Virus genome (UHGV): UHGV-1844214
Strand: one strand, 5' to 3'
Length of the DNA stretch: 16,776 nt
Source: a virus
Shown: positions 11,087-11,504 of the stretch, piece after piece
Layout of the letters: each line of letters opens with the position of its first letter
Position numbering within the stretch: the stretch's first letter is position 1
Program-made: the position numbers and the translations under genes
Notes under the pieces: generated by a model
What the model was told of the DNA's origin: nothing
What the model saw: the letters and a program-made list of their open reading frames with translations, nothing else
The model's database searches: none

Positions 11087-11504
11087 ATGAAAATTACAGA
11101 TATTCTGGTTAATCCAGATAATTACGACCAATTCAATATCTCTACTCAATCGGTTGATTTGGGATGTGCAACTGTCAGCGCATGGCTACTTAATGGTAAA
11201 CAGTTGGATAAATGCCTTGATGCACATATGACGGTTAACAGCTTCCTTGCAGAAAAAACACACTGGCAAGATGCTGGGGGGGAAATATGCTGGATGGCTT
11301 GAAAGCATGGGATTTGAATATCAATCTGATGAAGGTTGGTGGAGCATTATAGCTGTAACGCCTGAGACAATAGAATGCTTCGTTAAATACTCCAACGACG
11401 ATGACTATAAACACCAGGTAGATTCTGCGATAGAAAGATATAAAAGAAAATCATTCAACCACGAAATATCATCAGTTCTTGATTTCATAGAAGTTTTCAA
11501 ATAA
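11087..11504 (+). pseudogene. Hypothetical gene split by a frameshift at a G7 homopolymer (two overlapping ORFs, about 138 aa if fused)
   Basis: Frame A starts at ATG 11087 (GGAGG SD) and stops at 11302; frame B runs to 11504; they overlap across GGGGGGG at 11276-11282. Removing one G fuses ...WQDAGG to KYAGWLESMGFEYQ... Confidence 0.45.

Follow-up and report, generated by a model that had tools for sequence, protein, structure and literature searches.

Introduction

Neisseria opa and pilC, Haemophilus lic and the poly-G genes of Campylobacter are switched between reading frames by changes in the length of a homopolymer within their coding sequence. At these classical contingency loci the tract is conserved across strains and length-polymorphic, and the genes, which are expressed in the cell, mostly encode surface or restriction-modification functions. 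A frame-setting homopolymer is also present in UHGV virus genome UHGV-1844214, from which a stretch of 16,776 nucleotides (nt), hereafter the window, was analysed: a run of seven guanines (G7) interrupts a gene at positions 11087–11504, which is a copy of the PHROG 8967 gene in a lambdoid prophage from an Escherichia coli gut metagenome. In contrast to the contingency loci, the tract in the window is unique to one lineage, has one length, and lies in a phage early gene. We consider it probable that the locus carries a recent, lineage-specific loss-of-function frameshift in a non-essential early accessory gene of this prophage.

Three other known systems are useful for comparison. The 7C tract of Mycobacterium tuberculosis glpK is, like the tract in the window, a 7-nt G:C run in which the gain of one base inactivates the gene and slippage can revert the change. 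The glpK run is part of the wild-type gene, however, and its frameshifted variants recur in many isolates, whereas the run in the window is new and is limited to one lineage. The release factor 2 gene prfB also has two overlapping frames that can be joined by one +1 shift, but it has in addition a conserved shift site, an in-frame stop, an upstream Shine-Dalgarno-like stimulator and an arrangement that is conserved in homologues, none of which is seen at the window G7. With respect to position, the window gene resembles lambda ral, sieB and ea10/ssb and gene 17 of P22 and H-19B, which are likewise small, non-essential early genes located between a terminator and cIII with conserved flanks. PHROG 8967 differs from these N-to-cIII accessory genes in that it shows no sequence or fold similarity to any of them and is also found in virulent rV5-like phages.

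Results and discussion

A reading frame split at a G7 tract

The sequence GGGGGGG occupies exactly positions 11276–11282 of the + strand, where the context reads CAAGATGCTGGGGGGGAAATATGC. The open reading frame (ORF) that begins with the ATG at 11087 ends at a TGA at 11300–11302 and encodes 71 amino acids (aa), consisting of 65 native residues followed by six out-of-frame residues (EICWMA). A second frame, 11247–11504, is open across the G7 to a TAA at 11502–11504; it has a TTG start at 11247 and its first in-frame ATG at 11271. A preliminary description of this DNA had reported these two ORFs overlapping across the G7, and had predicted that the loss of a single G would produce an ORF of about 138 aa with a good Shine-Dalgarno sequence. 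Both statements were confirmed: removal of one G gives a fused ORF of 138 aa (addition of two gives 139 aa), and a GGAGG is found 4 nt ahead of the ATG. The features of the locus are as follows.

11087–11504, + strand: frameshifted copy of the PHROG 8967 gene, 418 nt versus the normal 417; matches the family profile when repaired; relatives are single coding sequences
11276–11282, + strand: G7 tract with the +1 frameshift; relatives have GGAGGG, codons GGA GGG, Gly63-Gly64
11087–11302, + strand: truncated 71-aa product that has lost the family's conserved core; both metagenome assemblies call it as a gene of this length
11271–11504, + strand: C-terminal remainder in the other frame, counted from ATG 11271; the ORF of the preliminary description starts at TTG 11247
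11078–11082, + strand: Shine-Dalgarno sequence GGAGG, read directly from the sequence

No convincing Shine-Dalgarno sequence precedes the ATG at 11271, the only start from which the C-terminal remainder could be made; neither source assembly calls a gene there, and the exact 77-aa and 85-aa C-terminal products are absent from the protein collection searched. In an annotation, 11087–11504 should be entered as one pseudogene rather than as two genes.

The G7 is the sole run of six or more G or C residues in the window, the next longest being runs of five C. A first-order Markov model of the window gives an expectation of about 0.19 runs of seven or more for G and about 0.21 for C, or about 0.4 together; the tract by itself is uncommon, but it is not remarkable for a sequence of this size and composition. 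What raises it above chance is that it coincides precisely with the sole point at which the frame breaks in a gene whose relatives have a single ORF.

The same site in related genes

Base-by-base reading of the site covered 34 independent loci: three E. coli chromosomes, four loci encoding the E. marmotae-type protein, five metagenome contigs and 22 IMG/VR contigs. In every one of them the tract is interrupted, with the form GGAGGG(A/G); the sequence is GGAGGGA in 32 and GGAGGGG in two. An intact ORF of 138–139 aa is present in 33 of the 34. Copies from complete E. coli genomes give the same picture, since all 35 that are full length span 417 nt and are annotated as a single coding sequence, and all 37 copies have the 6-nt spacing at the site, with ungapped matches throughout. 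An 86-nt test query carrying a G6 tract had no 100% match among these 37 copies. A pattern search for G5 to G8 had no match in IMG/VR, the metagenome collection or the GTDB species genomes, while a broader pattern search returned 27 loci, every one with 6-nt spacing. The rV5-type homologue encodes its Gly-Gly site as GAAGGTGCAGGC. Judging from these sequences, an uninterrupted G tract is not a feature of the PHROG 8967 family and is limited to the lineage represented by the window. The comparison with related prophages that had been proposed in the preliminary description thus yielded the intact single ORF that it was meant to look for; the opposite outcome envisaged there, in which related genomes would always show two separate ORFs, is contradicted, as the relatives never show two.

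The one locus of the 34 lacking an intact ORF is L035 (IMGVR_UViG_2778261165_000022, reverse strand). In its first ~130 nt, the first ~80 nt of the gene have been replaced by unrelated DNA, so this copy was inactivated independently of the window copy and by a different route.

Origin and age of the frameshift

With one G removed, the window allele differs from its nearest relative (L034) at four positions. Compared with 28 distinct alleles from relatives, the sole window base that is not seen elsewhere is an A>G change in codon 64, GGA to GGG, which is synonymous. Non-synonymous divergence (pN) of the window allele is 0.010 on the C-terminal side of the break and 0.016 on the N-terminal side, with no excess of non-synonymous change downstream. 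An intact protein identical to the repaired one is encoded on 13 contigs of E. coli isolates, with EMG9852400.1 and EMX2065349.1 as examples of drafts that encode it. Because the downstream part has undergone no extra decay and the repaired protein still exists intact in isolates, the break appears to be recent. Together with the single ORF in relatives, this bears out the recent inactivation that was one of three possibilities raised in the preliminary description.

A probable sequence of events can be outlined. The normal gene encodes one single-domain protein of 138 aa, transcribed from pL under N antitermination and located in a variable slot between a terminator and cIII, and in all relatives whose site we read base by base, GGA GGG encodes the two conserved glycines of the motif D-A-G-G-K-Y-A. 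In this E. coli strain a synonymous A>G substitution probably first joined GG and GGG into G6, after which one more G would have been gained, most simply by replication slippage, to give G7. A single-step change of A to GG could be an alternative route. In either case, translation from the ATG at 11087 is out of frame after Gly64 and stops at 11300–11302. The G7 can revert by slippage, as can any such run; the tract is a new accident of this lineage. In E. coli, the rate of insertions and deletions (indels) grows exponentially as homopolymers lengthen, and the hot spots for such changes include G:C runs of 7 and 8 bp (PMC8510543); an A>G substitution followed by +1 slippage fits this behaviour. 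If this outline is right, the locus offers a clean, small example of a synonymous change that turned a constrained Gly-Gly codon pair into a mutable run, where a frameshift then arose.

The shift falls at Gly64, exactly where the family's conserved core begins, and of the single-domain fold the 71-aa product retains no more than the poorly conserved N-terminal third. The +1 G splits an ORF that is intact in relatives, which makes the window copy a pseudogene copy of PHROG 8967. Its G7 is a by-product of the mutational path and not an evolved on/off switch. The phenomenon is already known in kind, being an ordinary strain-specific frameshift pseudogene; a homopolymer frameshift in a dispensable prophage gene amounts to routine prophage decay or strain-level variation, and as a phenomenon it matters little.

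Recurrence in a second sample

The 71-aa product is recorded on just two contigs, both from ENA metagenome assemblies. The G7 allele is found in FERR18-1_SAMN06350223 scaffold_42 and in FERR18-1_SAMN06350222 scaffold_43. The window corresponds to the first 16,776 bases of scaffold_42, on which the gene has the same coordinates, 11087–11302, as in the window. Scaffold_43 is 100% identical to window positions 3087–16776 over 13,690 bases, including the G7. That two samples, assembled separately, share this G7 speaks against a random error.

Several points weigh against a recent loss of function as we have described it. SAMN06350222 and SAMN06350223 are adjacent BioSample numbers, so while the assemblies are independent, they do not represent independent mutational events, and both samples probably hold the same strain. 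A consensus of G7 could conceal a mixture of G6 and G7, or a systematic error that is common to both libraries. We found no G6 intermediate allele among complete E. coli genomes, nor any in IMG/VR, the metagenome collection or GTDB genomes; for this reason we infer the two-step path, and the order of the two steps and the slippage mechanism are to be regarded as probable. Finally, the evidence for a probable loss of function is conservation.

Alternative explanations

The alternative that survives best, although we regard it as unlikely, is that the strain truly has an in-frame G6 or GGAGGG, to which sequencing chemistry or the assembler added a G. Homopolymers are classic sites of indel error, error-ridden copies of the PHROG 8967 gene (P0009 and P0010) exist in databases, and the 71-aa product is known solely from the two ENA assemblies. 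However, those assemblies were made separately from two samples and gave scaffolds of different length and offset that carry the same G7 and are identical over 13.7 kb. There is no other obviously split gene among the approximately 30 gene calls on the scaffold, and the difference from relatives is not a simple +1 within an existing run, as an A>G substitution is needed as well. The assembly naming suggests short-read Illumina data, in which, we presume, consensus indel errors at runs of 6–7 nt are rare. Of the sequencing or assembly error that the preliminary description had allowed for, the random kind is thus improbable.

We attach a very low probability to a nascent contingency switch, in which, within this lineage, the G7 would toggle the gene usefully often between ON (G6 or G9) and OFF (G7 or G8). 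It is true that the tract lies inside an ORF and that one slippage step would restore the full protein. The downstream half also shows no decay, and G:C runs of seven belong to the indel hot spots of E. coli (PMC8510543). Nevertheless, the contingency switch suggested in the preliminary description found no support, since the homopolymer occurs at none of the 34 loci read base by base, where GGAGGG is found instead, and no length variant was seen in any collection searched; a tract that is both conserved and length-polymorphic is what classical loci possess. The 37 copies from complete genomes share one spacing and include no exact G6 match, and both metagenome samples show the same OFF length. 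The gene lies behind a terminator in the pL operon with no convincing promoter of its own and is probably silent in the lysogen, which would leave nothing for switching to act on. In mismatch-repair-proficient E. coli, a 7-nt run slips far less often than the G/C tracts of classical contingency loci, which are usually longer. Equally slight is the chance that the G7 is a newborn reversible switch, one that has only just originated and toggles a conserved phage early protein of unmatched predicted fold; were that true, having the gene OFF might benefit the lysogen, for instance where leaky expression does harm.

The least plausible explanation, which was rejected, is a programmed event on the G run, either +1 ribosomal frameshifting or transcriptional slippage, that would supply the full-length protein as a regulated fraction. 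In its favour, tRNA-Gly can pair perfectly again once it has shifted by +1 on GGG-GGG-G, and the correct frame follows directly after the tract. However, the two-frame arrangement occurs in no relative, homologues being single ORFs. Nor is there a stimulatory element: the next 0-frame codon, GAA, is not a stop and is not rare, folding of the 80 nt downstream is no stronger than that of shuffled sequences (z = -0.30), and there is no Rfam match within 10500–12000.

The PHROG 8967 family

When one G is removed, the window ORF matches the phrog_8967 profile over 138 of 138 positions (E 4.9e-87), so that the copy belongs to the family by its full-length profile match while lacking the uninterrupted ORF of about 138 aa that other members have. 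Homologues in Escherichia, Dryocola and metagenomes, at 65–98% identity, are all exactly 138 aa long, and this length holds also for the more distant ones of 65–78% identity. By tblastn, 115 phage records have a family member at approximately 65% identity; most are of virulent Vequintavirinae, and one example, bas57_0086 of phage MaxTheCat, is located amid small early genes. An exhaustive profile search gave 62 cluster representatives, mostly of 125–150 aa. In an alignment of 45 superfamily members, all of which match phrog_8967, the conserved core reads D-x-G-G-x-Y-A-x-W-L ... G-W-W-S ... A ... F. The pooled ratio of non-synonymous to synonymous divergence (pN/pS) of the relatives is 0.22, which indicates purifying selection; the intact PHROG 8967 protein is therefore functional.

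Searches for a function gave little. The Pfam search produced just a sub-threshold match to Pertussis S5 (E 0.19), and there was no match in NCBIfam or PADLOC. A likeness to Avr3a in a PDB profile search (best E 0.016) was taken as chance. An AlphaFold2 model built from the 45-sequence alignment predicts one compact, mainly helical domain that includes all 138 residues, with a predicted local distance difference test (pLDDT) score of 96.3 and a predicted template modelling (pTM) score of 0.88; this confident model required the 45 sequences, as AlphaFold with only eight gave an unusable pLDDT of 44.6. As modelled, the protein is without a known structural neighbour. Its position and distribution suggest that PHROG 8967 may be an early host-directed or anti-defence accessory protein; a role in host takeover or anti-defence that has yet to be characterized, combined with a fold unseen in the PDB, is conceivable. 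The family is the most interesting by-product of this analysis; it is conserved, confidently modelled and present in both temperate and virulent coliphages, and it might merit functional study.

Two short database members, P0009 (76 aa, NCBI E. coli) and P0010 (88 aa, Logan), each have two frame changes, near an A6 run and the Gly-Gly site. They resemble the products of noisy assemblies, and truncated database members of the family call for caution.

The pL operon and its accessory slot

The region is the early segment of the lambdoid prophage, whose leftward pL operon is encoded by the + strand of the window. Genes follow one another in the order cII, cro-like and cI, and then N, a gene for an Nmad5-domain protein, a 108-aa ORF, the PHROG 8967 gene, cIII, kil, RecT and Gp157. 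The features that delimit the slot are the following.

11046–11074, + strand: terminator-like hairpin (11046–11067) followed by T7; left boundary of the cassette, matching the putative terminator before cIII in HK97
11536–11565, + strand: terminator-like hairpin (11536–11555) with a T-rich tail; right boundary of the cassette, before cIII
11588–11722, + strand: cIII, intact (Pfam Lambda_CIII; annotation in relatives)

Both cassette flanks recur in conserved form in 326 phage and 2,260 E. coli records, regardless of what the slot contains. Elsewhere, sieB, ea10/ssb, a DUF2528 gene or nothing is found between them; in HK97, gp45, the terminator and cIII are contiguous and the slot is empty. Since the flanks are conserved and the contents vary, the PHROG 8967 gene is best described as a cassette in the known variable pL accessory slot, having both the N-to-cIII position and flanks shared by phages with different inserts that characterize lambdoid pL accessory cassettes. 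A promoter of its own, as the moron model would have it, was not supported, there being four promoter-like matches within 10500–11800 compared with 3.9 in shuffled sequences. The immediate flanks, 10950–11086 and 11505–11587, are approximately 96–97% conserved across hundreds of lambdoid phages and look like recombination junctions for module exchange.

The Nmad5-domain protein (nucleotide-modification-associated domain 5) is encoded directly after N in the pL operon (9893–10576, + strand; 207 aa as called). The 108-aa ORF at 10615–10941 had no family match. In E. marmotae CP099344 (L005, 1478–2652), an IS3-type transposase gene is located just upstream and truncates the Nmad5 gene.

The host can be named as E. 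coli from the prophage end, where torI adjoins cscB, an arrangement seen in hundreds of E. coli genomes. At window positions 16576–16776 (and at 13300–15000 of L004) a torI-type excisionase gene lies beside cscB, the sucrose permease gene of the host. The same junction occurs in 372 complete E. coli genomes, and no integrase gene is called between the two genes on this side.

With regard to the host range of the family, sixteen records labelled "Campylobacter phage" (~143 kb, with C. jejuni given as host in 15; for example MG065690.1 and MG065644.1) also carry the rV5-type homologue. Its identity in these records is the same as in the E. coli Vequintavirinae, and the host label looks questionable.
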